From: a virus
Lineage: Duplodnaviria; Heunggongvirae; Uroviricota; Caudoviricetes
Virus record (IMG/VR): IMGVR_UViG_2778261276_000011
Location: 1-21,121 of that record
Reading direction: 5' to 3' (one strand)
Length of the DNA: 21,121 nt
The notes beneath the pieces were generated by a model. The model was not told the DNA's origin. It was given only the letters and a program-made list of their open reading frames with translations, and made no database searches. The position numbers and the translations under genes were made by a program. Positions 1-18,215 of this stretch are shown here, in pieces; the first letter of the stretch is position 1; the number at the start of each line of letters is the position of its first letter.

Positions 1-146
1 CTATTTATGAAAATTTTTCGGGAAAAAGCGTGTCGGTACTTCTCGTGTATAACTCATTGTTTTTTCATCAATCACATCCGTAAAAGGTCCGACATGAAAG
101 TGCCCGAAAAAGACGTTTTTGAGCACTTCCATGTCGGACCCTGCAT
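1..146 (+). promoter_or_regulatory. cosB: cosB-like terminase recognition region, immediately right of where cosN would lie
   Basis: Positions 1-17 (CTATTTATGAAAATTTT) match the lambda left end just inside the cohesive end, as recalled from memory. An 11-bp element GGTCCGACATG (86-96) recurs as its exact reverse complement CATGTCGGACC (131-141), with a related GTGTCGGTAC at 30-39 and an AT-rich stretch between them. This parallels the lambda R3 / IHF site / R2 (inverted) / R1 arrangement. It sits directly upstream of the Nu1 gene. Confidence 0.6.
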
Positions 147-164
147 TTGATATGGAAATGTTTT

Positions 165-713
165 ATGAAGGTTAATAAAAAGAAGCTCGCGGAAATTTTC
201 AACGTGGATCCACGAACGATTGAACGCTGGCAGTCTCAGGGGCTCTCTTGTGTCTCTGGTGGTAGTAAGGGGGTTGAATCTGTATTTGATACCGCCATGG
301 CAATTCAGTGGTATGCGCAGCGCGAAGCCGATATTGAAAACGAAAAACTCCGCAAAGAGACCGAGGATTTGCGTGCGGCTGCGGAATCAGATTTACAACC
401 CGGCACCATTGACTATGAGCGCTACCGACTCACAAAAGCACAGGCTGATGCACAGGAACTGAAAAATGCCCGCGAAGAAGGGCTGGTACTGGAAACGGAA
501 TTGTTTACCTTCATTCTGCAACGTGTGGCACAGGAGATTTCGGGGATACTTGTACGTGTGCCGCTGACATTACAGCGTAAATATCCGGATATTTCACCGT
601 CACACCTTGATGTGGTGAAAACTGAAATCGCAAAAGCCTCCAACGTTGCAGCTAAAGCTGGTGAGAACGTAGGCGGGTGGATTGATGATTTCAGACGCAC
701 AGAAGGCAGCTAA
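165..713 (+). CDS. nu1: terminase small subunit (lambda Nu1 family)
   Basis: Translation [27 protein letters not shown]... aligns along its length with lambda gpNu1 (MEVNKKQLADIFGASIRTIQNWQEQGM...). The product is about 182 aa, similar to lambda Nu1. The ATG at 165 is the first ATG in the frame (the ORF track begins at an upstream TTG). The 3' end overlaps the start of A, as in lambda. Confidence 0.9.
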
Positions 714-2601
714 TGCAGCCGGTGCGATAGCAACAGGGCTTGTATCTCTCAATATTCCGGTACCACTGACGACAGTTCAGTGGGCTGATCAGCATTATTA
801 TCTGCCAAAAGAGTCTTCATATACTCCCGGGCAATGGGAAACACTGCCGTTTCAGGTTGCCATCATGAACAGCATGGGGAATGACCGGATCCGCACCGTT
901 AATCTGATTAAATCGGCGCGTGTTGGTTACACCAAAATGCTGTTGGGGGTGGAGGCTTATTTTATTGAACACAAATCCCGTAACAGCCTGCTTTTTCAGC
1001 CGACAGATTCTGCGGCAGAAGATTTTATGAAATCCCATGTCGAACCAACGATAAGAGACGTTCCTGTATTACTGGAGCTGGCTCCGTGGTTTGGCAGAAA
1101 ACATCGGGACAACACGCTTACCCTGAAACGTTTCTCCTCCGGTGTGGGATTCTGGTGTCTGGGCGGAGCTGCTGCCAAAAACTACCGTGAAAAATCTGTG
1201 GATGTGGTCTGCTATGACGAACTCTCCTCGTTTGAACCGGATGTGGAAAAAGAAGGTTCACCAACTCTGCTTGGCGATAAGCGTATCGAAGGTTCGGTAT
1301 GGCCTAAATCCATACGCGGCTCAACGCCCAAAATTAAAGGTTTTTGCCAGATTGAAAAAGCCGCGAACGAATCTGCACATTTTATGCGGTTTTATGTGCC
1401 ATGCCCTCATTGTGGTGAAGCCCAGTATCTGAAGTTTGGCGATGATGCGACAACCTTTGGCCTGAAATGGGAGAAGGGCAAGCCGGAGACGGTGTATTAC
1501 CTGTGTGAACATAATGGCTGCGCGATCCGTCAGTCGGAACTTGACCAGACCGACGGGCGGTGGATTTGTGACAATACCGGGATGTGGACGCGTGACGGTC
1601 TGACATTTTACAGCGCCGGTGATGAGGAAATCCCGCCACCGCGCTCAATCTCGTACCACATCTGGACGGCATACAGCCCGTTCACCACCTGGGTACAGAT
1701 TGTTTATGACTGGCTTGATGCACTGAAGGATCCGAATGGCGTCAAGACGTTCATTAACACCACGCTGGGGGAGCCTTATGAAGAGGCTGTGGCAGAAAAA
1801 CTGAGCTTTGAGTTATTGCTGGAAAAAGTCTGCCACTATGATGCGCAGGTTCCCCTGCGGGTGGTTTACCTGACCGCAGGGATCGACTCTCAGAAAAACC
1901 GTTATGAGATTTATGTCTGGGGCTGGGCTCCTGGCGAAGAAGCTTTTCTGATTGACAAGCAGATCATCATGGGGAGACCGGAAGATGAGGACACCCTTAA
2001 ACGCGTTGATGCCGTGATCCGGAAAAAATACCGTCATGCAGATGGCACTGAAATTTCCATTTCCCGCGTCTGCTGGGATACCGGTGGTATTGACCAGGAC
2101 ATTGTGTATCAGCGATCCAGAAAACACGGCACTTTTTTTGTGCTCCCCATCAAAGGGGCGTCGGTGTACGGCAAGCCGGTGATCACCATGCCAAAAAAGC
2201 GAAACCAGCGTGGGGTGTTTTTGTGTGAGGTGGGTTCCGATACCGTCAAGGAAATGCTGTATGCGCGTTTTGCCCTGCCGGTGGTATCTGCCAGTGAAGT
2301 CGCACCGTATACCTTCCGTTTTCCGGATAACCCGGACATTTTTTCTGATGTTGAAGCTAAACAACTCGTGGCAGAAGAGCTGGTTGAAAAAGTTGTGAAC
2401 GGGCGGGTGAAACTCCAGTGGGATGCCAGAAAACGGCGTAATGAAGCTCTGGACTGTCTGGTGTATGCCTATGCAGCGCTGCGCATTTCCGTTCAGCGGT
2501 GGCAACTGGATCTGGATGCACTGGCCCGCGCCAGAAGAGATGAACAGGACGACGATGAAATGACTATTGAAGAAATCGCGGCTGCTCTGAGTGGAGGATA
2601 A
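685..2601 (+). CDS. A: terminase large subunit (lambda gpA family)
   Basis: The 638-aa product aligns end to end with lambda gpA from memory, with shared blocks such as YYLPKESx[68 protein letters not shown] and RRNEALDC. The start is the ATG at 685; the track's TTG at 682 is one codon upstream. Confidence 0.95.
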
Positions 2602-2604
2602 GTG

Positions 2605-2814
2605 ATGATTTATACGCATGAAATGCTATGCGATGCCCGCCGGGCGTTACATGAACTGATGATCGGACGTGCTGTGGTTTCCGTCAGCAAGGACGGGCGT
2701 CAGGTTCAGTATTCGCGGGCGACAATTGGTGAACTGCGTCAGTATATTGAAGAGCTGGAAAGTGCGCTGGGTGTATCCGGACGGCGTCGTGGCCCGGCAG
2801 GAGTGGGGCTGTGA
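2605..2814 (+). CDS. W: head-tail joining protein (lambda gpW family)
   Basis: The roughly 69-aa product (ARRALHELMIGRAVVSVSKDGRQVQYSRATIGELRQYIEELE...RRRGPAG) parallels lambda gpW ([27 protein letters not shown]...YIAELE...RRRGPAG). It lies directly after A, as in lambda. Confidence 0.85.
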   Translation: MIYTHEMLCDARRALHELMIGRAVVSVSKDGRQVQYSRATIGELRQYIEELESALGVSGRRRGPAGVGL

Positions 2815-3677
2815 ACGGGGAACTGGTGGATATTCATGGGCAGCCTTTACGGCAAAGCATGGGATATTCTGGTGGTGGTTCCGGGTTCGGTGGGCAAATG
2901 GCAGAATGGCTGCCTGCACCGGAAAGTGCCGACGTGGCGCTCTTACCTTCCATTCATCTGGGTAACGCCCGCGCGGATGAGCTGGTCCGTAACAACGGTA
3001 TTGCATCGAATGCAGTGGAAATTCATAAGGATCATATTGTCGGGCACATGTTTCGTCTGAGTTACCGTCCCAACTGGCGCTGGCTGGGGATGTCGGAAGC
3101 AGATTCACATGCTTTTATTGAAGATGTTGAGGCGGCGTGGATGGAATACTGCGATCCGGTGTTTGGTACGATGGATGTGGAAGGGCGTCGTTCGTTTACC
3201 GAATTCATTCGTGAAGGGGTGGGGGTCCATACGTTTAACGGTGAAATTTTTGTCCAGCCCGTATGGGATGCGGAATCCACGTCATTATTCCGGACGAAAT
3301 TCAAAACCATCAGCCCGAAGCGTGTCAGTACACCCGGTTATGGTACCGGCGATCGTTTTATGCGTGCCGGGGTGGAAATAAACCGACACGGAAAAGCGCT
3401 GGCCTACCATGTTCAGGATGATGACTGGCCCGGCTACGGTGTCAGTAAATGGACACGAATTACGGCAACACTGCCTTCCGGACGACCGGGAATGATCCAT
3501 GTGTTTCAGCCACAGGAAGACGGGCAGACCCGCGGGGCCAACCAGTTTTATTCTGTAATGGAGCGTCTCAAGATGCTCGACACACTGCAGGCCACGCAAC
3601 TGCAGTCGGCGGTGGTTCGCGCCATTTATGTCTATTATCTCCCCGTAGTTGTCGCCACCATTCATCAACTCCACTAA
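2811..3677 (+). pseudogene. B: portal protein (lambda gpB family), 3'-truncated: only about the N-terminal 273 codons are portal-like
   Basis: The product aligns with the lambda gpB N-terminal half (GGGSGFGGQ, LLP...GNARAD.LVRNNG, HIVG..FRLS.RP.WR.LG, FNGE.FVQ, HVF.P.EDGQTRGAN.FYSVME..KMLDTLQ.TQLQSA). Similarity stops after ...QSAVVRAIY near 3630, and the frame terminates 15 codons later, whereas lambda gpB is about twice as long. GTG start overlapping the W stop. Confidence 0.85.
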
Positions 3678-3753
3678 AACCCTTGATATGTCTGGAATGT
3701 CGTTTTTTGTATTTATGATGACCGTTCATTACCTTTCGTGTTTTTCGCGGTTT

Positions 3754-3807
3754 TGTGTATTGCAATGTGTATTGCAAGTTGGCGTTTGGATGGGGTGTGT
3801 ATTGCAA
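3754..3807 (+). repeat. three direct copies of TGTGTATTGCAA immediately upstream of int (two in tandem at 3754-3777, a third at 3796-3807)
   Basis: Exact 12-bp repeats read directly from the sequence. Their position 20-70 bp upstream of the integrase start suggests arm-type or regulator binding sites. A related ATTGCAA motif recurs at the right end of the element (11110-11148). Confidence 0.6.
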
Positions 3808-3826
3808 ATTGACGTGTAGGCTACAT

Positions 3827-5068
3827 ATGGCTATCGAGAATAAACTGACTGACAAACTTCTGAAAAGTCTTGCAGGTAAGCCGCAGGACAGACAAAAAAT
3901 CATGGCTGATGGGCGGGGGCTATCTGTTCGTGTAAGCGTGGTTGGGGGAATTAGTTTCGTTTTTTACTATCGTATTGGCGGCAGGGATGCCCCTCCGGTA
4001 TGGCTGACCCTTGGGCGTTATCCTGATATGTCTCTGGCAGCCGCCAGGAGATTACGCGACCAGTGCCGTGAATGGCTGGCGGAAAATCTGGATCCTCGCA
4101 GACAAATAAAACTTGTAGCTGAAAAAAACATGCGCCCTGTAACTGTAAGGGATGCGGTGCTTTACTGGTACGATAATCACGCCAGGACAGCCAGAAAGCA
4201 GCATGAGTATTTAATAAAAAGATTTGAAAAGCATATTTTTCCATATATCGGAGATATGGCTATAGAACAGTGCAAATTGCATACCTGGCTTACTGTATTT
4301 GACAGAATTAAAAAAAATGCTCCTGTTATGTCTGGTGCTATTTTTCTTGATATTAAACAGGCGTTACGTTTTTGCCGTATCAGGCAATACATTAGTTGCG
4401 ATCCATTCGGTGATATTAACGTTAGTTATGTTGGACGTTCAGCAGGCATAAGGGATCGTGTTCTGAGTATTAATGAAGCCGCTGACGTATGGTCTTATGC
4501 CTATGGCAACAATTTACTTACCCTTTCATCAATACATAACCGAAGAATTATGGTTATCTGCCTGGTGTTTGGTTGCCGTCAGCAGGAGGCGCGGTTATCC
4601 ACTTGGGAAGAATGGGATTTAAAAAACTGGATTTGGACAGTTCCAAAAGAGCACAGCAAGAACGGCGAGGTTATTGTAAGACCAGTCCCTGATGGAATAA
4701 AACAATGGGTTATTAATCTTTATGCGGAAACAAAGCACCGGGATTGTGTTATCGGTAGATCACTGAAGCGAGCGACAATAACAGGAGCAGCAAGCCGGAT
4801 ATGCAGGCGGCTAGGGCATGATGTAAATGGTCTGTGGTGCATACATGATTTCAGGCGTACATTTTCAACAATGCTTAACGATATGGGTGCCGATCCTTAT
4901 ATTGTAGAGCTTCTGCTTGGTCATAAAGTTAAAGGTGTGGCGGGTGTTTATAATAAAAGCAAGCATGCAAAGAAAAAACTTGAGGTTCTTAATATGTGGG
5001 TTAATTACCTTAACACGATAGCCGGATTTAATAATAACGTTATTGAACTGAGTAAAGAGGTTGTTTGA
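3827..5068 (+). CDS. int: tyrosine site-specific integrase, P4-like family
   Basis: The 413-aa product has an N-terminal arm-binding-type domain (LTDKLLKSL...DGRGLSVRVS..G.ISFVFYYR) and a C-terminal catalytic region with HDFRRT and LLGH...AGVYNKS (H-x-x-R and a Tyr nucleophile). The first ATG at 3827 is taken as start; the ORF track begins at an upstream alternative start. Confidence 0.9.
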   Translation: MAIENKLTDKLLKSLAGKPQDRQKIMADGRGLSVRVSVVGGISFVFYYRIGGRDAPPVWLTLGRYPDMSLAAARRLRDQCREWLAENLDPRRQIKLVAEKNMRPVTVRDAVLYWYDNHARTARKQHEYLIKRFEKHIFPYIGDMAIEQCKLHTWLTVFDRIKKNAPVMSGAIFLDIKQALRFCRIRQYISCDPFGDINVSYVGRSAGIRDRVLSINEAADVWSYAYGNNLLTLSSIHNRRIMVICLVFGCRQQEARLSTWEEWDLKNWIWTVPKEHSKNGEVIVRPVPDGIKQWVINLYAETKHRDCVIGRSLKRATITGAASRICRRLGHDVNGLWCIHDFRRTFSTMLNDMGADPYIVELLLGHKVKGVAGVYNKSKHAKKKLEVLNMWVNYLNTIAGFNNNVIELSKEVV

Positions 5069-5069
5069 T

Positions 5070-5327
5070 ATGTCAGTTTATTCACTTGTTGATGAAAAAG
5101 ATTTTACTGCAATGCCGGATATTGATCGTGTCATTCGTGAAAAAGAATGCGTGGCACTTACTACGCTGGCAAATTCAACACGCTGGAAACTGGAAAAGAC
5201 AGGTAAGTTCCCAAAACGTATTAAGATTGGTGAACGTGCCGCTGGCTATCGTCTCTCGGAGATTCAGGCGTGGATCCGTGGCGATTGGCACCCAGGATGG
5301 AAACCGGAAAAAACAAAACAGCAATAA
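5070..5327 (+). CDS. alpA: AlpA-family phage transcriptional regulator (small HTH protein)
   Basis: The roughly 85-aa product carries the AlpA-like motif IDRVIREKECVALTTLANSTRWKLEKTGKFPKRIKIGERAAGYRLSEIQAWI. It starts 2 nt after the int stop, the classic int-alpA arrangement of P4-like elements and enterobacterial PICIs. Confidence 0.8.
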   Translation: MSVYSLVDEKDFTAMPDIDRVIREKECVALTTLANSTRWKLEKTGKFPKRIKIGERAAGYRLSEIQAWIRGDWHPGWKPEKTKQQ

Positions 5328-5343
5328 CCAGGAGATAAACACA

Positions 5344-5369
5344 GCCCCGCTCAATGCGGGGTTTTTTGT
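5344..5369 (+). terminator. rho-independent terminator downstream of alpA
   Basis: GC-rich hairpin CCCCGC-TCAAT-GCGGGG followed by TTTTTTGT. Confidence 0.7.
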
Positions 5370-5386
5370 ATGTGAGGTAAAAAGCG

Positions 5387-5965
5387 ATGAATAAAAATAT
5401 TGCCGTGACGGGCAAAGGTGACGCTCGTCTAGTAAAAAAATTCTGTGATATTCGTGATCTGGTCGTTCTGCGCTTTGATGGTGTGAACGTTCGCGTGGTG
5501 TATCTGAACGGCGATCCGTGGTTTGTTGCAGTTGACGTGTGCGCTGCGCTGGAAATTGTTGATCACAAGGTTGCGTTACGCCGTCTCGATGATGATGAAA
5601 AGGGGGAGTGTTTAATACCCACCCTTGGCGGAAATCAAACAATGCGAACTGTATGCGAGTCAGGTTTCTACAAACTAATAGCCCGTAGCCGCAAAGCAAC
5701 GACGCCTGGCACGTTCGCCCATCGTTTCAGTAACTGGGTATTCAGAAATGTGATACCGGGTATCAGAAAAACGGGGGCTTATGGTATCCCGTGGGGCGCA
5801 TTACAGGATTTTTCCCGCCGTAAAGAGCAATATCAGATAAGTGCCAGCGAGAAGGGGAGGGAGCTACAGGCATGTAAGCGCAAAAAGCGTGAGCTGGAGG
5901 AAGAAGAAAAAAGGCTGATACGTGAATATCAGCCTGAGTTTTACTTTGGTGAGCGTATTCAGTAA
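5387..5965 (+). CDS. Bro-N domain protein (antirepressor-like) with a charged coiled-coil C-terminus
   Basis: The N-terminal region F..VNVRVVYLNGDPWFVAVDVCAALEI...RRLDDDEK...GG.Q....V.ESGFYKLI.RSRK....F..WV...VIPGIRKTGAYG matches the Bro-N consensus. RBS GAGG upstream; C-terminal KRKKRELEEEEKRL. Confidence 0.75.
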   Translation: MNKNIAVTGKGDARLVKKFCDIRDLVVLRFDGVNVRVVYLNGDPWFVAVDVCAALEIVDHKVALRRLDDDEKGECLIPTLGGNQTMRTVCESGFYKLIARSRKATTPGTFAHRFSNWVFRNVIPGIRKTGAYGIPWGALQDFSRRKEQYQISASEKGRELQACKRKKRELEEEEKRLIREYQPEFYFGERIQ

Positions 5966-6122
5966 CCACTCGCAGTGCTGATTATACGGTACATCGTGTT
6001 AACCGGGAAGCTACCCACCAGCAAGGCAAAATCTTCTGCTAAAAAATGATATATGGTCAGCCGTCCGGAAAGCATGAAATTTTACAAAAATGGAAAATGA
6101 AGATTTTTATTGTGCTGGTGGG

Positions 6123-6154
6123 TAAAAACAAAAAGCGCCCCGTTGCCGGAGCGC
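6123..6154 (-). terminator. rho-independent terminator, leftward-reading
   Basis: On the minus strand a 7-bp stem GCGCTCC / GGGGCGC (one G.U pair) with a 6-nt loop is followed by TTTTTGTTTTT. It may also act weakly on plus-strand transcripts from the Bro-N gene. Confidence 0.55.
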
Positions 6155-6248
6155 CTTTGTGAACAATTAACCTACTGCGCAAAAAATGAATCTGAGCAGT
6201 GGGATTATATCAACCGTGTGACGAAGCGCCACAATTGCCGGATAACAG

Positions 6249-6278
6249 GCAAAACAAAGGCCACCCGCTACGGTGGCC
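6249..6278 (-). terminator. rho-independent terminator, leftward-reading, at the end of the leftward cassette
   Basis: Perfect 7-bp stem GGCCACC / GGTGGCC with loop CGCTAC; on the minus strand it is followed by TTTGTTTTG. Confidence 0.6.
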
Positions 6279-6396
6279 CTTCAACACAAGCTACACGTTA
6301 TCCCCAACGCATGAGCATCACCAACAATGCCACATTTGCGGCTGGTGGGCAAAGCTTTAGCGGAATTTTTTCCCTGTTGCCTGGAGTGGGTAATGA

Positions 6397-6579
6397 TTAC
6401 TTGTATCGCTTATTCCTGCACAAAACAGGGCTGCTCTTTTTGATGAAATCCTCAAGCAAAAAACACTCTGTTGATGCTCTTGGTAATTCTCTGGTGGAAG
6501 GATGGGGTTTTATCCCCCATTTTCGTTTACGTTCTTCCAGAAAGGAGGTGAGTATATCTAGTTTCTGTGCGTCCATCAT
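6397..6579 (-). CDS. hypothetical small protein (60 aa), third ORF of the leftward cassette; coding status uncertain
   Basis: ORF in the same frame as the two upstream leftward ORFs. Only a weak RBS is present, and a plus-strand terminator-like hairpin (6502-6528) lies inside it, so this may instead be non-coding. Confidence 0.3.
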   Translation of the reverse strand: MMDAQKLDILTSFLEERKRKWGIKPHPSTRELPRASTECFLLEDFIKKSSPVLCRNKRYK

Positions 6580-6599
6580 TTTTCTCTTGGATACTTCTT

Positions 6600-6650
6600 T
6601 GTGCCATGGATCCTCACACCACGGCGCTGATAGTGGTTATTTCTGCTCTT
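6600..6650 (-). repeat. copy A of a roughly 50-bp intergenic repeat
   Basis: About 80% identical to 6851-6905, with a core CACCACGGCGCTG shared exactly. It spans the stop codon and downstream spacer of the 6637-6834 ORF. The two copies are 255 bp apart, a multiple of 3. Confidence 0.6.
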
Positions 6651-6834
6651 CAACATCACCATGTCGTGATGTTTTCCAAGTATGCGACCCCATTTTTGTG
6701 CGCCTGTACTCTTTTAAGAACTTCTCAAGGCCAAACGCACATGGCGCGAATCTCTCCTGTTCTTGTTCGCTTACCGCGTTTTTGCGTTGTTTTTTCCTGG
6801 ATGAAGATAATTTCTTTAATGATTTGTCAGTCAT
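6637..6834 (-). CDS. hypothetical small basic protein (65 aa), second ORF of the leftward cassette
   Basis: ATG preceded by AGGT about 8 nt upstream. The product MTDKSLKKLSSSRKKQRKNAV... is lysine/arginine-rich. No family recognised. Confidence 0.35.
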   Translation of the reverse strand: MTDKSLKKLSSSRKKQRKNAVSEQEQERFAPCAFGLEKFLKEYRRTKMGSHTWKTSRHGDVEEQK

Positions 6835-6850
6835 CGTAGATACCTGTAAC

Positions 6851-6905
6851 CCAGTGCGCCACAGTTCACCGCACCACGGCGCTGGTGATGGTTACTCCTG
6901 CTCTT
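6851..6905 (-). repeat. copy B of the roughly 50-bp intergenic repeat
   Basis: See copy A. It spans the stop codon and downstream spacer of the RHH gene and contains the small palindrome CACCA-N6-TGGTG. Confidence 0.6.
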
Positions 6906-7071
6906 TGGCCTTGCGACGCTGGCGGCGTTTGATCTCGCCTTGCATTGACGCAATGATGAATTGTGATGTGCTTTCGCCTGATTCTTTCACTGATTCCATG
7001 GCGTTTACTATTTCGTGTGGTACACGAGCCTTTAGAGCTTGTGATTTTGCGTTTGTTGTACCCGTTGCCAT
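6892..7071 (-). CDS. ribbon-helix-helix (Arc/MetJ/CopG-like) DNA-binding protein, candidate repressor of the element
   Basis: The 59-aa product MATGTTNAKSQALKARVPHEIVNAMESVKESGESTSQFIIASMQGEIKRRQRRKAKEQE parallels the beta-strand/helix/helix layout of P22 Arc. GAGG RBS 7 nt upstream. It is divergently transcribed from the rightward operon across an operator-bearing intergenic region. Confidence 0.55.
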   Translation of the reverse strand: MATGTTNAKSQALKARVPHEIVNAMESVKESGESTSQFIIASMQGEIKRRQRRKAKEQE

Positions 7072-7099
7072 TTCTATTCCTCTGGTGGATTGGTGGGGA

Positions 7100-7180
7100 A
7101 CAGTATACACAGAAAAAACACAAATAAAACTCTTGACGTGGACCACACCTAAAACATATAGTGGGCCACACCTTAAAATT
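7100..7180. promoter_or_regulatory. divergent promoter region with direct-repeat operators
   Basis: Rightward: TTGACG (7133-7138), 18 bp spacer, TATAGT (7157-7162). Leftward: a -10-like TATACT on the minus strand about 30 bp upstream of the RHH start. Two direct repeats, TGGACCACACCTAAAA (7139-7154) and TGGGCCACACCTTAAAA (7162-7178), flank the rightward -10. Confidence 0.5.
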
Positions 7181-7270
7181 ATCAAGGCGCATAAATGCAA
7201 AGCCCCGCAAGTGTCGTTACCACTCGCAGGGCTTCTAACCACCAACGATAGAAAGAGTATCGAGGTAGCT

Positions 7271-7474
7271 ATGAGAAATCATACCACACACCCGCAAGGG
7301 CGGGACTCGCACAACCTGAATAAATACATCTGGCGTTTTATCGCCCTGAGCACGGCACAACCGCGCGTGATTACCATCGAGGCCACCAGCGAACAGGAAG
7401 CACGCCAGCAATCTCCGGCTGGCTGCGTGATGGTATTCGCCGCCCGTATTCGCCAGGAGGTGCGCCATGATTAA
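7271..7474 (+). CDS. small protein (67 aa), possibly Icd-like (host cell division inhibitor family of P4-like elements)
   Basis: GAGG RBS. Its TAA stop overlaps the next gene's ATG region. The motif YIWRFIALSTAQPRVITIEATSEQEARQQ...VFAARIRQ resembles Icd-like proteins as I recall them; not verified. Confidence 0.45.
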   Translation: MRNHTTHPQGRDSHNLNKYIWRFIALSTAQPRVITIEATSEQEARQQSPAGCVMVFAARIRQEVRHD

Positions 7475-7679
7475 CCTGTCACTTACCGACCTTAACCGCA
7501 TTCAGTTTCGTGAGAAATTTACCGGGCAGTTGTTGGTTAATGTGGATAAAGGTCGCGTGGTGTGTAATTACCACCTGCCAGATGAAGCAATTGTCGCAAC
7601 AAGGGAATCATTACAGGAACTCGCAGAGCGTGCCGGAATGATTAACGCGAATATTCAGGGGGTGAGACATGTGCAATAA
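7467..7679 (+). CDS. hypothetical protein (70 aa), operon member
   Basis: Strong RBS AGGAGGTG; start overlaps the upstream stop; compact head-to-tail operon. Confidence 0.6.
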   Translation: MINLSLTDLNRIQFREKFTGQLLVNVDKGRVVCNYHLPDEAIVATRESLQELAERAGMINANIQGVRHVQ

Positions 7680-7911
7680 CCCCCGTCCGGACGCAGCCGC
7701 CGAAGCTATCAGAACGCTGATGCACGCGCTGATTGATATTTCATGCACGGCAGCAACCGCAGAAAAACACATTACCATAGAGCCGGAATATACAGGGGCA
7801 ATAATCCCGCATTCGCTGGCATACGCACAGCTTACCGCTGATATGGCACTGAATGAGGCCAAAGCTATCCTGATTGCTGATTGTGAAAATGGGGGGGGTG
7901 GTTATGCGTGA
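7669..7911 (+). CDS. hypothetical protein (80 aa), operon member
   Basis: RBS GGGGGTGAG; start overlaps the upstream gene by 11 nt. Confidence 0.6.
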   Translation: MCNNPRPDAAAEAIRTLMHALIDISCTAATAEKHITIEPEYTGAIIPHSLAYAQLTADMALNEAKAILIADCENGGGGYA

Positions 7912-8137
7912 TGATCGTTTTAATGCCCTGAAACAGGAATTTGATGGCGCACCGGAAGATACAGATATTGCGCTGTTATGTGTTGCTGACATGGTAAAAG
8001 CTGCATGTTTTTTACTGGAAACCGCCGAACATTCAGGAACGGGTAGCGATATTCTCAATATTGCGTCGGACTATGCGGAATATGTGGCAGAGACGCGTTA
8101 CAGAAGTAAATTCCCGGAGGGGGTGAGCCATGCATGA
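7904..8137 (+). CDS. hypothetical acidic protein (77 aa), operon member
   Basis: ATG at 7904 preceded by GGGGGGGTGG; overlaps the upstream stop by 8 nt. The ORF track's earlier start at 7874 is a non-ATG codon. Confidence 0.55.
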   Translation: MRDDRFNALKQEFDGAPEDTDIALLCVADMVKAACFLLETAEHSGTGSDILNIASDYAEYVAETRYRSKFPEGVSHA

Positions 8138-8363
8138 TATTTACAATGACACAGTAGACCATGCATACAGCGCACTTGCTTACAGTGAAAACATGCTTGA
8201 AATATTGCGCTTATGGCTTGAAACGCTTGGCGATAATGAAAGAGATAAACGCAACAGCAATATTGCAACAGCATTAATAACGCTTCTTGAGCCTGTAATA
8301 AATGAACTGCAAGAAATAGACATCTTGCACGACAGATATAAAGAGCCACACACCGGAGAATAA
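8130..8363 (+). CDS. hypothetical protein (77 aa), operon member
   Basis: RBS GGAGGGGGTGAG; start overlaps the upstream stop by 8 nt. Confidence 0.6.
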   Translation: MHDIYNDTVDHAYSALAYSENMLEILRLWLETLGDNERDKRNSNIATALITLLEPVINELQEIDILHDRYKEPHTGE

Positions 8364-8368
8364 AAACC

Positions 8369-8668
8369 ATGAAAAAGAAAAATTCTGGCTTTACTGCCAG
8401 CGGCCCCGCTCGGCCTGAAATCCGCCCAGGCGATATTTTCCGGGATAACTACGGCGGCACGGTAACGATTAAAAGTATTGCCGGACGGTGCGTTACTTAC
8501 CGCCGTGATGGGTACAGCTACGACTGCGTGATGCCTGTTTATCAGTTACGGCGTGATTTTTCGCTGGTACAGGCCACACCACGCAGACAGCCCACCAGCA
8601 ACGCAAAGGCACGGGCAAATATTCAGAAAATGAAAAACATGATTAACGCATTCAGGGGTAAAAAATGA
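8369..8668 (+). CDS. hypothetical protein (99 aa), possibly DUF4222-like
   Basis: RBS GGAGA. The motif IRPGDIFRDNYGGTVTIKSI...YRRDGYSYDCVMPVYQLRRDFSLV resembles a small phage/enterobacterial family from memory. Its stop overlaps the rep start. Confidence 0.55.
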   Translation: MKKKNSGFTASGPARPEIRPGDIFRDNYGGTVTIKSIAGRCVTYRRDGYSYDCVMPVYQLRRDFSLVQATPRRQPTSNAKARANIQKMKNMINAFRGKK

Positions 8669-10080
8669 AACTGGCACCGAACTTAAAAAAACAGCCGCAC
8701 GACAAAATGACCGAAGTCATTATTTTTGCGGGTAGTGATGCCTGGGCGCACGCGAAACAGTGGCAGGAACAGGACGGGCGACTTGCTGGCGACAACGTGC
8801 CGCCTGTATGGCTTGGAGACAACCAGCTTGACGAACTGGCAGACCTGAAAATCATCGATGATGGTCGCTATTGTGTCCGGCTGTACAAGGCAGGCCACAT
8901 CAAGCCGTCAAATATTAATGCCATCGGGCAAAAGCTGGCGGCGGCAGGTGTACGGGATGCGAATTATTACCCTGAGGGAATGCACAGCCAGAAGCTGGAG
9001 AACTGGCACGACTACCTGCAACGGATCCGCGAACAGGCAGAGCGCGGGGAAATACTTACTGACGAGCAATACAGCCAGCGAAAAACCACACTACCAATGA
9101 GCATTGGGTCCGCAGGATACGACACACAGCTTGATTATGTCGTTAAGGGCGTGATTCCGGCTAATTCGTTGTGCAGCACATACGGCGCGAGCGGTTCCTA
9201 TAAATCGTTCCTCGCGTGTTCCTGGGCGTGTCATGTTGCCACGGGTCGCCACTGGGGAGGCCGCAGGGTGGCGCATGGTTCGGTGATGTATGTTGTCGGT
9301 GAAGGGGGTATAGGTGTCCCCCGCCGTATCAAGGCATGGGAAATCGTTAATGATGAACGGGTGGAAAATTTGTACCTGGTAAACCGCCCGATTTTTCCGG
9401 CTGTCCCGCTTGATGTTGATGAAATGGTTATCGCGTCCCGCCAGGTTGAACGGGAAACGGGTAAACCGGTACGCATGATTATTCTGGATACGCTGGCGCG
9501 TTGCTTTGGTGGTAATGATGAAAATGACGCGCGGGATATGGGGGCGTTTATCCGTGGATGTGACGAACTGAAACGACGCACAGGGGCCACGGTGCTGGTG
9601 GTTCACCATTCCGGCAAGGATGAAACAAAGGGGGCACGTGGTTCCAGTGCATTTCGTGCATCTCTGGACGCTGAATACCGTATTCGCCGTGAAGGTGCGG
9701 ACAGTGAAGCCCTGGTTATCTCCTGCACCAAAATGAAGGACGCGGAGGAACTGAAAGAGGCTGCATATGATTTACGCGTGGTGGAGCTTTTTACCGACGC
9801 TGACAAGGAGTTAATCACGTCGCTGGTGGTTGTGGATAAGCCGCGCCCACCAGTTGAACTGGAGCGCATCGAGGAAGCCGGGAACAAGACGGAGAATCAC
9901 GCCGCGCTATGGGGCTGTATCCGTTCACGCACACAGCGCGGCGATAAATGCACTATCCCGTTATTGCGTGATGATATGAAAAAGCTGGGGTATGAGATGA
10001 AGCACTTTAGTCGCTGGTTACGCAAGCTGGAAAGTGACGACGTAATCGCTATTGACGGCGATGATGTTCACCCGATGTAA
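8665..10080 (+). CDS. replication initiator / helicase-type ATPase (RecA-like, AAA_25/RepA-like) with a C-terminal DNA-binding region
   Basis: Walker A-like GASGSYKS and Walker B-like VRMIILDTLARCFGG with the downstream VLVVHHSGKD typical of RepA/DnaB-like RecA-fold ATPases. The gene is immediately followed by an iteron array. Confidence 0.8.
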   Translation: MKLAPNLKKQPHDKMTEVIIFAGSDAWAHAKQWQEQDGRLAGDNVPPVWLGDNQLDELADLKIIDDGRYCVRLYKAGHIKPSNINAIGQKLAAAGVRDANYYPEGMHSQKLENWHDYLQRIREQAERGEILTDEQYSQRKTTLPMSIGSAGYDTQLDYVVKGVIPANSLCSTYGASGSYKSFLACSWACHVATGRHWGGRRVAHGSVMYVVGEGGIGVPRRIKAWEIVNDERVENLYLVNRPIFPAVPLDVDEMVIASRQVERETGKPVRMIILDTLARCFGGNDENDARDMGAFIRGCDELKRRTGATVLVVHHSGKDETKGARGSSAFRASLDAEYRIRREGADSEALVISCTKMKDAEELKEAAYDLRVVELFTDADKELITSLVVVDKPRPPVELERIEEAGNKTENHAALWGCIRSRTQRGDKCTIPLLRDDMKKLGYEMKHFSRWLRKLESDDVIAIDGDDVHPM

Positions 10081-10082
10081 AA

Positions 10083-10281
10083 AGTGGGGAACAAAAGTGG
10101 GGAGAGTGGGGAATTTAACAAAAAATCAACGTTACTCCCCACTTTCCCACCTGTATATACCCAAAAAAGTGGGGAGTAAAAAACACATTGAAAAACATCA
10201 CGTTAGAATCACAAAAAAACGAGGTGGGGAGCAAGTGGGGAATTTTAAAAAGTGGGGAACAAAAGTGGGGAGTGGTGGGGA
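10083..10281 (+). repeat. iteron-type replication origin: about 10 copies of (A/G)GTGGGGA flanking an A-rich segment
   Basis: AGTGGGGA at 10083, 10096, 10105, 10168, 10234, 10251 and 10264; GGTGGGGA at 10223 and 10274; one inverted copy TCCCCACT at 10136. Clustered copies are spaced about 10-17 bp apart. The array starts 3 nt after the rep stop. Confidence 0.8.
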
Positions 10282-10533
10282 ATGAACAGAAAAACCAGAG
10301 ATAAAACAGTGCCAAAATATCGCGCATTAGACATGACAGAGCACGCCTTAAAGGTGGCAATCAGAACGATAGACCGCCACGCCGGGGAAGGATACGCGAA
10401 AGCACATCCCGAACTGATAAGCGCATTCATGGCCACGACGGCGGCAAACTTTGCCACGCTGACAGAACGGGAGATTGCCGAAGCGGAACAGGTGACAACC
10501 ATCAACGTTAAAACCGGAGAGCAGACAGCATGA
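10282..10533 (+). CDS. hypothetical protein (83 aa)
   Basis: The ATG uses the last iteron GGTGGGGA as its Shine-Dalgarno sequence. Its stop overlaps the SSB-like gene start (ATGA). Confidence 0.5.
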   Translation: MNRKTRDKTVPKYRALDMTEHALKVAIRTIDRHAGEGYAKAHPELISAFMATTAANFATLTEREIAEAEQVTTINVKTGEQTA

Positions 10534-10952
10534 CAGCACAGATAGCGGCTTACGGGCGGCTGGTGGCTGACCCACAGTTAAAGACCACCAGCAAAGGGAC
10601 ACAAATGGCGATGGCGAGTATGGCGGTTCCCCTGCCGTGCAGCCAAGCAGATGACGGAACGGCGACGATGTGGTTATCCGTCCTGGCGTTTGGCAGACAG
10701 GCCGACGCACTGGCAAAACACCACAAAGGCGAACTGGTGAGCGTGGCGGGTAACATGCAGGTAAGCCAGTGGACAGGCCAGAACGGCGAAACGCGGCAGG
10801 GCTGGCAGGTTATCGCAGACAGCGTAATCAGTGCCAGAACGGCGCGACCGGGCGGCAAAAAAGGCCAGCAGGGCCAGGCTACTGACGCACTGAACAGGGC
10901 AAAACAACAGGCGGGAAATGATGATCCGTACTGGGATAACATACCGTTTTAA
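10530..10952 (+). CDS. single-stranded DNA-binding protein, SSB family (short, divergent)
   Basis: OB-fold layout parallels E. coli SSB (IAAYGRLVADPQL... vs VILVGNLGQDPEV...; W.SVLAFGRQAD.LAKHHKGELV...QVSQWTGQNGETRQGWQV vs WHRVVLFGKLAEV...KGSQV...RKWTDQSGQDRYTTEV). A Gly/Gln-rich linker leads to a C-terminal tip DPYWDNIPF, reminiscent of the SSB acidic tail ending DDDIPF. Confidence 0.75.
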   Translation: MTAQIAAYGRLVADPQLKTTSKGTQMAMASMAVPLPCSQADDGTATMWLSVLAFGRQADALAKHHKGELVSVAGNMQVSQWTGQNGETRQGWQVIADSVISARTARPGGKKGQQGQATDALNRAKQQAGNDDPYWDNIPF

Positions 10953-10967
10953 GCAACGAGTGACAGA

Positions 10968-10995
10968 AGCCGGGATTTTTCCCGGCTTTTTTGTG
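10968..10995 (+). terminator. rho-independent terminator ending the element's rightward operon
   Basis: Stem AGCCGGG / CCCGGCT with loop ATTTTT, followed by TTTTTGTG. Confidence 0.75.
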
Positions 10996-10998
10996 CGC

Positions 10999-11033
10999 AA
11001 AAAAAATCCCCCGGGATGAGGTTCCGGGGGATT
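10999..11033 (-). terminator. rho-independent terminator, leftward-reading; with the previous hairpin forms a bidirectional terminator pair
   Basis: Perfect 10-bp stem AATCCCCCGG / CCGGGGGATT with a 9-nt loop, preceded on the plus strand by an A8 run (a T-run on the minus strand). Confidence 0.7.
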
Positions 11034-11127
11034 TCACGCCGCTAACGTGATTAGCGCTGAATGACTCTGTGGTACAAGGAGTAAAACCACGGCATCATGA
11101 TTTCATGATTTGCAACAACAGTCAATG

Positions 11128-11148
11128 TCATTGCAAAAAATGCAATGA
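11128..11148. promoter_or_regulatory. palindromic operator-like site TCATTGCA-AAAAA-TGCAATGA
   Basis: Perfect 8-bp inverted repeat around an A5 centre, inside a region with repeated CATGATTT (x2) and TTGCAA motifs; upstream of the ORF at 11211. Confidence 0.4.
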
Positions 11149-11210
11149 TAATTAAAATCATGAATGACTTTTCGTTATGTTTATTTTTTAGTCAAAGAGG
11201 AATCTCATTT

Positions 11211-11417
11211 ATGGGAACACAGAAGCCGGGCGGTGTATCCGTGTACATCAGCCCCGATATTATCGCCGCACTTAATGCGCGCTTTGAGGAGAACGCAGAG
11301 GCAGGAAAAAAAATCGGCCTTGATCCGTTGTGCCTGGTGAAGCCGTCAGTCGGCTGGATGGTACGCAGCGATTTACGCGCTGCGCTTGGTATGAATCAGC
11401 CTCATGGGGGTAAGTAA
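11211..11417 (+). CDS. hypothetical small protein (68 aa) translationally coupled to the capsid gene remnant
   Basis: RBS AAGAGGAA. Its stop overlaps the E start (TAATG). It sits where lambda has D but does not resemble lambda gpD. It is unclear whether this belongs to the prophage or the element. Confidence 0.45.
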   Translation: MGTQKPGGVSVYISPDIIAALNARFEENAEAGKKIGLDPLCLVKPSVGWMVRSDLRAALGMNQPHGGK

Positions 11418-12046
11418 TGACAGCGCCGCAACTGGTAAGCACACCAACGCTACTGAAAAATATCGGGCGCGAAGATGTGCCGGAATTTAAATTTAATCCA
11501 CTCTTTACTACGTTGTTCTTTCCGAACGTCGCTACTTTCAGCACCAGAGATATTGCACTTGATACGCTGGATATTGAAAACGTGGTCATGAGTCCGTTTT
11601 GTTCTCCAATGTCAGGCAGCCAGGTTATGCGTGACAAAGGTTTCACAACGAACACGTTCACGCCGGGTTATATGAAGCCCAAACACGTTATTGATCCCAC
11701 CAAAACAATCATGCGCATGGCTGGAGAACAGATCGGCAATGGTCAGTCTTCCCCGGCACTACGCCGCGTAAAAATGGTTCACGACAGCCAGAAAAAACAG
11801 CTTGCTGCCATCAAAGCGCGTGTTGAATGGCTGGCGGTCAATGCCATCACAACAGGCCGTAACGTTATTGAAGGCGAAGGCATTGAGCGTTATGAAATTG
11901 ACTGGGGATTACCCGCAACCAATCATATTACGCAGGCTGGCGGGAAAGAATGGTCAAAACAGGATGCCGAAACGTTTGATCCGATAAGCGACATTGAGGC
12001 TTACGCTGATTTTTCCAAAGGTACGGTATCCGGCAGGAAACACTGA
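11417..12046 (+). pseudogene. E: major capsid protein (lambda gpE family), N-terminal fragment of about 196 codons
   Basis: The product matches the lambda gpE N-terminal half (FKF.PLF..LFF, FTPGY.KPKH, ITQ.GG.EWSK.D..T.DP..DIEAYA). Homology ends after DIEAYA (about 12006) and the frame stops at 12046, whereas lambda gpE is much longer. Confidence 0.85.
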
Positions 12047-12717: not shown

Positions 12718-12721
12718 ATCC

Positions 12722-13465
12722 ATGACAGAGACTGAATCAGTGATTCTGGCGCACGCCCGGCGATGTGCGCCAGCGGAGTCGTGCGGCTTCGTGGTGAGAA
12801 CGCCGGAGGGGGAAAGGTATCTTCCCTGCGTGAATATCTCCGGTACTCCGGAGGCGTGTTTCCGGATGGTACCGGAAGACTGGCTGCGGGCACAAATACA
12901 GGGCGAGGTGGTGGCGCTGGTCCACAGCCATCCCGGTGGTCTGCCCTGGCTGAGTGAAGCCGACCGTCAGCTGCAGGTACAGAGTGATTTGCCGTGGTGG
13001 CTGGTCTGTCGGGGGGCTCTCCATAAATTCCGCTGCGTGCCACATCTGACCGGAAGGCGCTTTGATCACGGGGTGACGGACTGTTACACGCTGTTCCGGG
13101 ACGCTTATCATCTGGCAGGAATTGAGATACCGGATTTTCATCGTGAGGATGACTGGTGGCGTAACGGTCAGAATCTTTACCTGGACAACATGGCAGATAC
13201 AGGCTTTTACCCGGTCACCCTGTCAGCGGCGCAGCCGGGCGATGTGTTGCTGTGCTGCTTTGGTTCATCGGTGCCGAATCATGCCGCCATTTACTGTGGT
13301 GACGGCGAGCTGCTGCACCATATTCCTGAACAACTGAGTAAACGAGAGAGGTATACAGAAAAATGGCAGCGACGCACACACTCCCTCTGGCGGCACCGGG
13401 CATGGCACGCCTCTGCCTTTACGGGGATTTGCAACGATTTGGCCGCCGCATCGACCTTCGTGTGA
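12722..13465 (+). CDS. K: tail tip assembly protein (lambda gpK family; NlpC/P60-like / JAB-type)
   Basis: Begins MTETESVILAHARRCAPAESCGFVV... (lambda K begins MTQTESAILAHARRC..., as recalled). ATG at 12722, 4 nt after the L stop. The frame stays open to 13465 and overlaps the I start by about 100 nt in another frame, so the true 3' end is uncertain. Confidence 0.75.
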   Translation: MTETESVILAHARRCAPAESCGFVVRTPEGERYLPCVNISGTPEACFRMVPEDWLRAQIQGEVVALVHSHPGGLPWLSEADRQLQVQSDLPWWLVCRGALHKFRCVPHLTGRRFDHGVTDCYTLFRDAYHLAGIEIPDFHREDDWWRNGQNLYLDNMADTGFYPVTLSAAQPGDVLLCCFGSSVPNHAAIYCGDGELLHHIPEQLSKRERYTEKWQRRTHSLWRHRAWHASAFTGICNDLAAASTFV

Positions 13466-14010
13466 AAACGGGGGCTGAAGCCATCCGGGCGCTGGCCACA
13501 CAACTTCCGTCGTTTCGTCAGAAACTGAGTGACGGCTGGTATCAGGTACGTATCGCCGGGCGGGATGTCAGCGAGTCCGGGGTAACGGCACAGCTCCATG
13601 AGCCGTTACCGGACGGTGCGGTGATCCACATTGTTCCCCGGCTTGCCGGTGCAAAGCATGGCGGAATTTTTCAGACCATCCTGGGTGCTGTGGTTGTTGC
13701 GGTAGCCTGGTGGAACCCCGCGGGCTGGCTGGGTGCGGCAGCACTTACGGGGATGTATGCCGCCGGGGCCAGTATGATCCTCGGCGGGATAGCGCAGATG
13801 CTGACACCGGCCATCAAAACGCCGTCCATGGAGTCCGCGGATAACGGCAAACAGAACACCTTTTTTTCCTCGCTGGATAATATGATCGCCCAGGGGAATC
13901 CGTTACCGGTACTGTATGGTGAGATGCGTGTGGGGTCGCGTGTGATTTCACAGAGTATCAGTACTGCTGATGAGGGTGATGGTGGTCAGGTTGTGGTGAT
14001 TGGTCGCTGA
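13363..14010 (+). CDS. I: tail tip assembly protein (lambda gpI family)
   Basis: MAATHTLPLAAPGMARLCLYGDLQRFGRRIDLRVKTGAEAIRALATQLP... and the C-terminal ...YGEMRVGSRVISQSISTADEGDGGQVVVIGR match lambda gpI as recalled. Confidence 0.9.
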   Translation: MAATHTLPLAAPGMARLCLYGDLQRFGRRIDLRVKTGAEAIRALATQLPSFRQKLSDGWYQVRIAGRDVSESGVTAQLHEPLPDGAVIHIVPRLAGAKHGGIFQTILGAVVVAVAWWNPAGWLGAAALTGMYAAGASMILGGIAQMLTPAIKTPSMESADNGKQNTFFSSLDNMIAQGNPLPVLYGEMRVGSRVISQSISTADEGDGGQVVVIGR

Positions 14011-14030
14011 TGTAAAACGTTTTATGTGAA

Positions 14031-14055
14031 ACCGCCTGCGGGCGGTTTTGTTGTT
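14031..14055 (+). terminator. hairpin plus T-run between I and J (possible attenuator or terminator)
   Basis: AACCGCC-TGCG-GGCGGTT followed by TTGTTGTT, about 15 nt upstream of the J start. Confidence 0.4.
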
Positions 14056-14070
14056 AATGGAGCCAGATAA

Positions 14071-17000: not shown

Positions 17001-17469
17001 GATAGCTGAAAACTGTACGATAAACGGTACGCTGAGGGCGGAAAAAATCGTCGGGGACATTGTAAAGGCGGCGAGCGCGGCTTTTCCGCGCCAGCGTGAA
17101 AGCAGTGTGGACTGGCCGTCAGGTACCCGTACTGTCACCGTGACCGATGACCATCCTTTTGATCGCCAGATAGTGGTGCTTCCGCTGACGTTTCGCGGAA
17201 GTAAGCGTACTGTCAGCGGCAGGACAACGTATTCGATGTGTTATCTGAAAGTACTGATGAACGGTGCGGTGATTTATGATGGCGCGGCGAACGAGGCGGT
17301 ACAGGTGTTCTCCCGTATTGTTGACATGCCAGCGGGTCGGGGAAACGTGATCCTGACGTTCACGCTTACGTCCACACGGCATTCGGCAGATATTCCGCCG
17401 GATACGTTTGCCAGCGATGTGCAGGTTATGGTGATTAAGAAACAGGCGCTGGGCATCAGCGTGGTCTGA
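14071..17469 (+). CDS. J: tail tip central fibre / host specificity protein (lambda gpJ family)
   Basis: The 1132-aa ORF begins [42 protein letters not shown]..., which matches the lambda J N-terminus as recalled. The length is the same as lambda J. Confidence 0.95.
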
Positions 17470-17530
17470 GTGTGTTACAGAGGTTCGTCCGGGAACGGGC
17501 GTTTTATTATAAAACAGTGAGAGGTGAACG

Positions 17531-18151: not shown

Positions 18152-18176
18152 TTAGCCAGGTAACACAGTGTTATGA

Positions 18177-18208
18177 CAGCCCGCCGGAACCGGTGGGCTT
18201 TTTTGTGG
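18177..18208 (+). terminator. rho-independent terminator downstream of lom
   Basis: Stem GCCCGCCGG / CCGGTGGGC (one G.U pair) followed by TTTTTTGTG. Confidence 0.7.
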
Positions 18209-18215
18209 GGTGAAT

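Follow-up and report, generated by a model that had tools for sequence, protein, structure and literature searches.

A probable decayed copy of a known helper-embedded PICI in the portal gene of a lambda-like Escherichia coli prophage

The closest described relatives of the element analyzed here are the helper-embedded PICIs (HE-PICIs) of E. coli, for which nesting in the structural region of the helper is the defining habit (Tommasini, Mageeney and Williams 2023, NAR Genom Bioinform, PMC10111431). The integrase of one published site group, B:Phage_portal_2:241, targets the exact portal codon that is interrupted here; an example of the group is Eco14386.11.B_Phage_portal_2_241 in helper Eco14386.58.potB. 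In the published family, the induced helper carries the satellite along by passive replication and transcription, the satellite next uses its own replicon (RepA-like helicase, iterons, and SSB), and its own gpE-like capsid and decoration proteins, together with an Rpp protein, divert helper packaging. The published spacing from the doubled motif to the att center is 132 +/- 2. Many HE-PICI helpers appear truncated, and 34 elements are without a found attR; these are mentioned in the published account, where such deletions were not dissected (PMC10111431).

A decayed HE-PICI is the most probable occupant of the interrupted portal gene. The stretch of DNA that was analyzed (the window, 21,121 nucleotides) comprises the late region of an E. 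coli prophage of lambda-like type that is integrated at potB/potC, and the chromosomal flank is 100% E. coli. We assign a probability of about 0.93 to the reading, made from sequence comparison, that the nested element is a decayed copy of a catalogued E. coli satellite. Here a lambdoid prophage at potB and a B:Phage_portal_2:241 HE-PICI form a composite locus that has decayed. Its kind is already known, and it is not a new type of island or a recombinant of satellite and helper that has gained new properties. The original prediction had proposed an integrative PICI-type satellite with a P4-like integrase nested in a lambda-like prophage, and both the domains and the junctions agree with this. 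It had treated nesting in the structural region as an oddity, which is instead the site-specific habit of the published family, and had offered either an insertion with a deletion or a satellite-helper recombinant, of which only the deletion stands. The remnant keeps 8.4 kb of satellite DNA in the same orientation as the helper late operon, with the main satellite genes all on the plus strand (Table 1). By comparison, the intact element is 10,826 bp (measured in relative L020), equal to the published B:Phage_portal_2:241 element. The zones are ordered Integration (int/alpA), Bro (Bro-N/YlcI), Replication (DUF4222/RepA/iterons/SSB), and Late (orf68/capsid), with the Late zone cut short. Zone order, orientation, helper location at potB, the 163-nt attL, and its GCGCCAT block are all shared with the published group.

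Table 1 Features of the window, with the evidence for each
Feature	Position	Strand	Basis
Terminase small subunit (nu1), helper	165..713	+	N61 annotation, L001 1165-1713, via 99.9% alignment
Terminase large subunit (A), helper	685..2601	+	L001 1685-3601; GpA_ATPase and GpA_nuclease in L005 gene calls
Head-tail joining protein W, helper	2605..2814	+	L001 3605-3814; gpW Pfam match
Portal gene, N-terminal fragment	2859..3677	+	~257/507 codons helper, then ORF enters satellite DNA, stop at 3677
attL identity block GCGCCAT (crossover region)	3619..3625	+	Alignments; common to N61 attB and attR of intact relatives
Probable HE-PICI remnant	3626..~12027	+	Continuous 99.7-99.9% identity, window 1-12028 vs L016, L017, L019, L020, L023
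int-proximal doubled motif tgTGTATTGCaatgTGTATTGCa plus third TGTATTGC copy; presumed arm-type sites	3754..3805	+	Motif count
Tyrosine integrase, 413 aa, full length	3827..5068	+	Pfam Arm-DNA-bind_3, Phage_int_M, Phage_integrase
AlpA (excisionase/activator family)	5070..5327	+	Pfam Phage_AlpA, E = 3.8e-15
Bro-N domain protein (anti-repressor family)	5387..5965	+	Pfam Bro-N; phrog_2593, E = 1.2e-78
Small ORF, variable Bro zone	6637..6834	-	phrog_21027, E = 1.6e-42
YlcI/YnfO family protein	6892..7071	-	NCBIfam NF041551; phrog_949
Rightward operon, five small overlapping ORFs	7271..8363	+	Gene calls in identical contig L005; PHROG matches
Operon ORFs (first one Icd-like)	7271-7474; 7467-7679; 7669-7911; 7904-8137; 8130-8363	+	
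DUF4222 protein	8369..8668	+	Pfam, E = 7.8e-23
RepA-like replicative helicase (AAA_25), 471 aa, full length	8665..10080	+	Pfam, E = 3.2e-44
Iteron cluster, AGTGGGGA repeats, direct and inverted; putative satellite origin	10078..10293	.	Repeat families D1, D2, D5, D10; inverted pairs I1-I11
Small ORF, 83 aa	10282..10533	+	phrog_1231, E = 8e-49; L005 gene call
Single-strand DNA-binding protein (SSB)	10530..10952	+	Pfam SSB
Two adjoining GC-rich hairpins with T/A runs (bidirectional terminator)	10967..11034	.	Repeat pair I8; between replication and late zones
68-aa ORF	11211..11417	+	phrog_3255; gene calls; upstream of capsid gene in all relatives
Satellite gpE-family major capsid gene, cut after nt 612/1056	11417..12046	+	Pfam Phage_cap_E positions 14-186 of 329
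Deletion junction, 2-bp (TA) microhomology	12027..12028	.	Three-way alignment; BLAST end points
Helper tail gene L without start codon and first 3 codons	12028..12717	+	tblastn residues 4-232 at 100%
Tail genes K, I, J, lom, stf, tfa, helper	12722..21121	+	99.86% identity to L001 15130-24224

The left junction matches a published att site. Both flanks of the window align at 99.9% with an uninterrupted prophage of E. coli N61 (L001), the kind of related arrangement that the original prediction had proposed to look for, and the comparison defined the exact break points. Window 1-3630 is 99.9% identical to L001 1001-4630, and helper homology breaks off within the portal gene, at 3625-3630 or about codon 257 (portal nt ~772). 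The Pfam Phage_portal_2 match is limited to profile positions 2-242 of 354. The predicted mid-gene stop near 3630 was correct. Window 3562-3724 is completely identical to the published 163-nt attL of the B_Phage_portal_2_241 elements Eco10760.11, Eco13983.11, and Eco8720.11, and complete elements in L003 and L004, which keep attR and the portal C-terminus, have the same attL junction. We identify the left junction, by these alignments, as the site-specific attL of site group B:Phage_portal_2:241. The motif TGTATTGC was found seven times in the window against 0.83 expected. Its doubled form (tgTGTATTGCantgTGTATTGCa) begins at 3754, which is 132 bp from the core center at 3622, and a doubled TGTATTGC motif at +132 is likewise a feature of the published group. 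The published attR and the upstream arm, which bears the second copy of the doubled motif, were found nowhere in the window; both occur in the intact relatives L016, L020, and L023. The window copy is thus a truncated derivative rather than a complete HE-PICI member.

The interior of the element agrees with this placement. The integrase is 89% identical to those of L003 and L004, which use the same portal site, but only 26% identical to that of L002, which uses a terL site. The exact protein is also found in intact elements, and by domains and identity the element has the terminal integrase followed by alpA that characterizes the HE-PICI clade. The module content given in the original prediction (P4-type integrase, AlpA, Bro-N, Rep ATPase, and SSB) was borne out by Pfam, with the ATPase proving to be an AAA_25 RepA-like helicase (97% identity to the L002 and L003 proteins) and DUF4222 as an addition. 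The predicted iterons and bidirectional terminator are present as well, as is a minus-strand gene. The latter, encoding the YlcI/YnfO family protein and called as the only leftward gene, may have a regulatory role. A promoter-like site at 7133-7162 lies ahead of the five-ORF operon, whose first ORF takes the name Icd-like from the homologous L003 gene. Other individual gene functions would likewise be those suggested by their family matches. No truncation affects Int, AlpA, Bro-N, or the replicon, so some residual activity is possible, for example in-situ replication or interference with incoming phages.

Other satellites resemble the element in part. The Gram-negative PICIs (EcCICFT073; Fillol-Salom et al. 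2018 ISME J; 2019 Mol Cell, PMC6739421) likewise start with int-alpA and continue with a replication module; they also depend on lambdoid helpers and have an Rpp protein, of which intact relatives of the window element encode a homologue. Classical PICIs of this type, however, occupy chromosomal genes away from the helper, whereas a late gene of the helper itself is the site for the family described here; the copy in the window is without rpp and so does not have the combination of Rpp and a terminase-redirecting cos that marks the EcCICFT073 type. Similarities to satellite P4 are the integrase architecture (Arm-DNA-bind_3), the Icd-like ORF, and genes of the AlpA family and the Bro network, but the P4 helper is P2 rather than a lambdoid phage. 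Unlike P4, the element has no alpha primase, sid, psu, or delta, and its replication protein is of the AAA_25 RepA type. The P4 CI RNA (Rfam C4/isrK) had no match in the window at E <= 1, and P4 morphogenesis genes had no Pfam matches among window proteins. The element has its own major capsid gene in common with capsid-forming PICIs (cf-PICIs), but in its intact relatives the genes of this kind are limited to capsid, decoration, and Rpp, with small ORFs, and there is no portal, protease, terminase, or connector set.

The right end of the remnant is a deletion junction that affects both partners. Satellite capsid nt 612 is joined to codon 4 of helper tail gene L (break at L nt 9), producing a 209-aa fusion ORF of 204 capsid residues followed by SGRKH; the gene L remnant is in a different frame. 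The helper is missing 10.5 kb, consisting of the portal C-terminus, C, D, E, FI, FII, Z, U, V, G, T, H, and M, while its kept tail region is 96% identical to lambda 13437-22535. The satellite is missing its last 2.4 kb, containing the capsid C-terminus, decoration gene, RppC homologue, and attR. These losses separate the window copy from the published HE-PICI, of which it is a predicted dead-end derivative. By tblastn, no frame of the window contained any of the genes deleted from helper or satellite, and no Rpp homologue is present in the window. The satellite's own truncation was missed in the original prediction. Window 1-12028 has 99.7-99.9% identity to five progenitor-like intact composites (L016, L017, L019, L020, and L023), which past the equivalent of 12028 carry the capsid C-terminus, the decoration gene, the RppC homologue (a match to PDB 6HLK, E = 4.8e-34, that falls within the segment deleted here), attR with GCGCCAT, and the portal C-terminus. 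The satellite cos was not located in the intact relatives, where blastn gave no match to the helper cos, and its loss from the window copy is therefore presumed.

Integration alone cannot account for the loss of helper genes, and a deletion is thus needed. A single illegitimate deletion of ~12.9 kb at a 2-bp microhomology, following satellite integration and reaching from capsid nt 612 to gene L codon 4, would have removed genes of both partners and left a fixed remnant that was inherited vertically. Integration probably preceded deletion, an order suggested by the existence of intact near-identical composites and not by a dated phylogeny. With no attR, no rpp, and no intact helper, both satellite and helper are predicted to be immobile. 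Excision of the satellite should be impossible because attR is absent, as should its packaging because rpp and the neighboring late-zone DNA are gone. The prophage would be unable to produce heads or tails.

A more active interpretation is that the locus is a functional hybrid of satellite and helper, in which a PICI lengthened by capture of the helper tail genes L to tfa still moves as a unit. Capture of helper late-gene clusters by PICIs has been proposed, with HE-PICIs well placed for it (Tommasini et al., PMC10111431), the integration, regulation, and replication genes of the satellite are intact, and a second independent capsid-to-tail-gene deletion occurs in the composite L015. We consider this very unlikely, as such a unit would here have no attR, published sequence included, a destroyed capsid gene, no rpp, and a gene L that is out of frame and without its start codon. 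The prophage end and potB directly follow the tail genes, and sister contigs carry further deletions, which are random and typical of decay.

Even less probable is the arrangement of the original prediction, in which a satellite that lacked capsid and packaging genes of its own ended at 11200, had replaced the portal C-terminus, protease/scaffold, and decoration genes, and was followed from 11417 by the helper capsid. An ORF of the Phage_cap_E family does begin at 11417, and the terminator pair resembles the end of a module. However, the product of this ORF shares 98.5% identity with the capsid of L002, a related satellite, and 41% with the helper capsid, and the same 68-aa ORF precedes the capsid gene in all satellites. 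The capsid gene at 11417 is, on this similarity, a truncated gene of the satellite and not of the helper. Satellite homology continues to 12028, and helper homology restarts at 12027 in tail gene L rather than in a head gene (BLAST). The helper loss extends from the portal C-terminus through M, including tail genes Z to M, and is much larger than had been predicted; D, E, and FI through M are not in the window. For the family as a whole, the absence of capsid and packaging genes is also wrong, as intact relatives carry capsid, decoration, and RppC genes.

Assembly error, with a satellite contig wrongly joined to a prophage contig, is hardly credible. Repeated phage genes can mislead short-read assemblers, but nothing specific points to this here, and the two sides share only 2 bp at 12027, with no repeat. 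The fusion ORF lies next to potB in 17 contigs that were assembled independently and by separate pipelines (sources: NCBI, ENA, and Logan), five of which cover all or most of the element at 99.98-100% identity to the window, so the junction is an inherited deletion and not an artifact; the attL is in addition a known biological junction found in complete genomes. A phage that naturally carries the module and has a simple frameshift or point mutation in its portal gene, suggested by nothing but the truncated ORF, is just as implausible, since tblastn of the portal matched residues 13-258 only, with no C-terminus in any frame of the window, and uninterrupted prophages that are 99.9% identical do not have the module.

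The main use of reading the locus as a decayed composite is its correct annotation. It also provides a base-resolved case in which a helper-embedded satellite and its helper were lost jointly through a microhomology deletion, with further decay in sister strains, and thus bears on the published remark about truncated helpers. Similar loci may account for some of the 34 published HE-PICIs with no detectable attR.

In L015, the separate deletion joins capsid nt 210 to the C-terminus of J. Together with the window this makes two independent events in near-identical composites, and fusions of satellite capsid to helper tail could conceivably be recurrent rather than random, although we regard this as improbable. 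If recurrent, they may represent a favored host route that grounds helper and satellite while lom, stf, and tfa stay, or alternatively the beginning of late-gene capture as it has been proposed for PICIs.

Among complete E. coli genomes, the reference set for the whole-window comparison, strain N61 carries between potB and potC one continuous lambda-like prophage late region, nu1 to tfa in full lambda gene order, that is 99.9% identical to window 1-3630 and 12027-21121. On the left, the break falls within the portal gene, and the Pfam profile Phage_portal_2 is matched only over positions 2-242 of 354, bearing out the original prediction that portal homology ends near 3630. The right break is 9 nt into tail gene L. 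Missing from the window is approximately 10.5 kb of helper DNA that encodes the portal C-terminus, S49 protease C, D, E, FI, FII, Z, U, V, G, T, H and M, as well as the first three L codons. By tblastn, none of these genes is matched in any frame of the window, nor does portal similarity continue beyond 3630 in another frame, which excludes a simple frameshift of the portal gene. Window 1-60 begins with CTATTTATGAAAATTTT and lies immediately right of the helper cosN (compare the left end of lambda), with cosN itself just outside the window. An IS3 insertion between the lysis/bor region and nu1 is found in the helper prophage of N61 and of several satellite-bearing genomes, just left of the window start (838-2000 in L013; 4493-5655 in L018, L020, L021 and L022). 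In the window lineage, several draft contigs seem to begin some 700 bp upstream of nu1, which would fit a break at IS3.

The DNA between the two breaks, from 3626 to about 12027, was annotated as a satellite, and its features agree with the gene list first proposed for the inserted module.

Features of the satellite portion of the window
Feature	Window coordinates	Strand
Tyrosine integrase, P4-type architecture	3827-5068	+
AlpA	5070-5327	+
Bro-N protein	5387-5965	+
Variable stretch with small ORF and YlcI/YnfO gene	5966-7071	- (both genes)
Promoter-like site	7133-7162	
Rightward operon of small overlapping ORFs	7271-8363	+
DUF4222 protein	8369-8668	+
RepA-like helicase, AAA_25	8665-10080	+
AGTGGGGA iterons	10078-10293	
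Small ORF, then SSB	10282-10952	+
Two terminator hairpins	10967-11034	
68-aa ORF	11211-11417	+
Capsid ORF, gpE family	11417-12046	+

Helper head homology had been thought to resume with the capsid ORF at 11417. Over 205 residues this ORF is 98.5% identical to the capsid of a satellite in E. coli TUM9812 and only 41% identical to the helper capsid, and DNA homology to the TUM9812 satellite is unbroken from 8352 to 12028. Judged by these comparisons, the ORF is part of the inserted element and not of the helper, which resumes only in gene L. It is cut at nt 612 of 1056, and its last five codons are helper DNA. The observation behind the original prediction is thus partly confirmed and its interpretation partly supported: with N61, TUM9812 and intact relatives for comparison, the nested satellite and an accompanying deletion stand, while the limits of the element, the assignment of the capsid gene to the helper and the proposed size of the deletion do not.

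As described by Tommasini, Mageeney and Williams (2023, PMC10111431), helper-embedded PICIs (HE-PICIs) are a set of 491 satellites with an integrase clade that has 14 target sites in lambdoid late genes, the satellite always lying in the orientation of the target gene (PMC10111431). Site group B:Phage_portal_2:241 includes elements with a gcgccat identity block, in a helper named 58.potB (PMC10111431). The published 163-nt attL of three members (Eco10760.11, Eco13983.11 and Eco8720.11; PMC10111431) is identical to window 3562-3724, and the doubled motif tgTGTATTGCantgTGTATTGCa, whose published distance downstream of the att centre is 132 +/- 2 bp (PMC10111431), starts in the window exactly 132 bp from that centre. 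The published attR (PMC10111431) is present in intact relatives and absent from the window; attR was likewise not found for 34 catalogued elements, and many helpers are truncated (PMC10111431). The window thus carries a truncated copy of an element type that has already been catalogued, and its kind is already known.

Other satellite classes fit less well. A P4-like satellite was rejected for lack of C4/isrK RNA, P4 primase, sid, psu and delta genes; an Rfam search of 3400-12200 for a P4-like CI/seqA immunity RNA returned only weak terminator-like chance matches. A cf-PICI was rejected since intact relatives have no portal, protease and terminase set, and classical Gram-negative PICIs differ in integration location. 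The element is not a tRNA-site island, because a tRNA scan of the window found none. Megablast of 3400-12200 against a phage database gave no match.

Window 1-12028 is matched at 99.7-99.9% identity by five intact composites of helper and complete satellite (L016, L017, L019, L020 and L023). Beyond this stretch they have the capsid C-terminus, an HDPD decoration gene, orf141, a 146-aa protein, orf61, attR and the portal C-terminus; attL, attR and attB have the GCGCCAT block in common. The 146-aa protein is a homologue of RppC, the redirecting phage packaging protein (PDB 6HLK, E = 4.8e-34); it is encoded at 19638-20078 in L020, where the intact element measures 10,826 bp, in a segment deleted from the window and without equivalent there. 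No sequence relative of orf141 was found in PDB. The helper cos region had no blastn match in the intact L020 satellite, so a satellite cos was not located.

Compared with a progenitor of this kind, the window has lost roughly 12.9 kb in a single stretch, made up of about 2.4 kb from the satellite and about 10.5 kb from the helper. The junction at 12027 has only TA microhomology and does not resemble the att core GCGCCAT(T/G)TATG, which points to illegitimate recombination; an integrase-mediated deletion was rejected on these grounds. Gene L is left without its start codon and in a different reading frame from the capsid fragment. Some public annotations give a 229-aa L protein from a doubtful ATC start exactly at the junction (window 12028-12030; 10612-11301 in the identical contig L005); not until 12190 does a canonical start codon occur in frame.

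Assemblies from NCBI, ENA and Logan contain 17 contigs with the 209-aa fusion ORF, adjoining potB. Flanking chromosomal sequence is 100% E. coli. Five of the contigs cover all or most of the element at 99.98-100% identity to the window. This recurrence rules out an assembly artefact and indicates that the junction is real and inherited. An exact junction search of a contig collection found no match, as each species is represented there by a single genome.

Decay of the remnant continues in the window lineage. Two sister contigs that retain the 12027 junction have lost window 1430-10674 (L008) or 1854-2232 and 16709-20248 (L006), with microhomology overlaps of 4, 6 and 2 bp. In L015, a separate lineage with a 99.97%-identical composite, an independent deletion fuses capsid nt 210 with the helper J C-terminus (17760-17840, corresponding to a join of window 11626 and 17148; 1-bp microhomology). 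This second event with its left end in the satellite capsid gene is a slight hint, from two events, that capsid-to-tail-gene deletions recur, a mildly novel angle.

In the published model, an HE-PICI splits a helper late gene and delays its expression until Int/AlpA excision (PMC10111431), is replicated and transcribed in cis with the induced helper, and then uses helper virion parts (PMC10111431); induction experiments concerned only one, different member, 11capE (PMC10111431). At the window locus the satellite would not excise, because attR is gone, and would not redirect packaging, because rpp is gone; helper heads and tails would not be made. Int, AlpA, Bro-N and the replicon are all full length, and may allow residual activity in situ or interference with other phages.

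The exact window integrase occurs in 292 index blocks, including several complete genomes with intact composites; the one-genome-per-species collection yielded no confirmed related loci for it. In strains CFSAN064035 and 48, complete elements occupy the same portal-gene point and are followed by an attR and the portal C-terminus; their integrases share 89% identity with that of the window. The TUM9812 satellite (L002), which is inserted in the terminase large-subunit gene, is 96% nucleotide-identical in its replication and late zones but has an unrelated integrase (10544-11776; 26% identity).

Near-identical satellites swap modules: in L022 a D5_N/DUF5906 primase (14947-16701) replaces the AAA_25 helicase, and the integrase and late zone are the same. 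At window 7669-8137, two overlapping small ORFs match one half each of a single 154-aa family (phrog_2512) that is a fused gene in L002, and in L023 neighbouring ORFs are joined into a 232-aa fusion; small genes here differ between copies by frameshift. One stretch of the Bro zone (5966-6890) is mosaic and largely unannotated, with a strongly T-rich + strand (AT skew -0.33), nine terminator-like hairpins against 1.6 expected and a minus-strand 65-aa ORF (phrog_21027).
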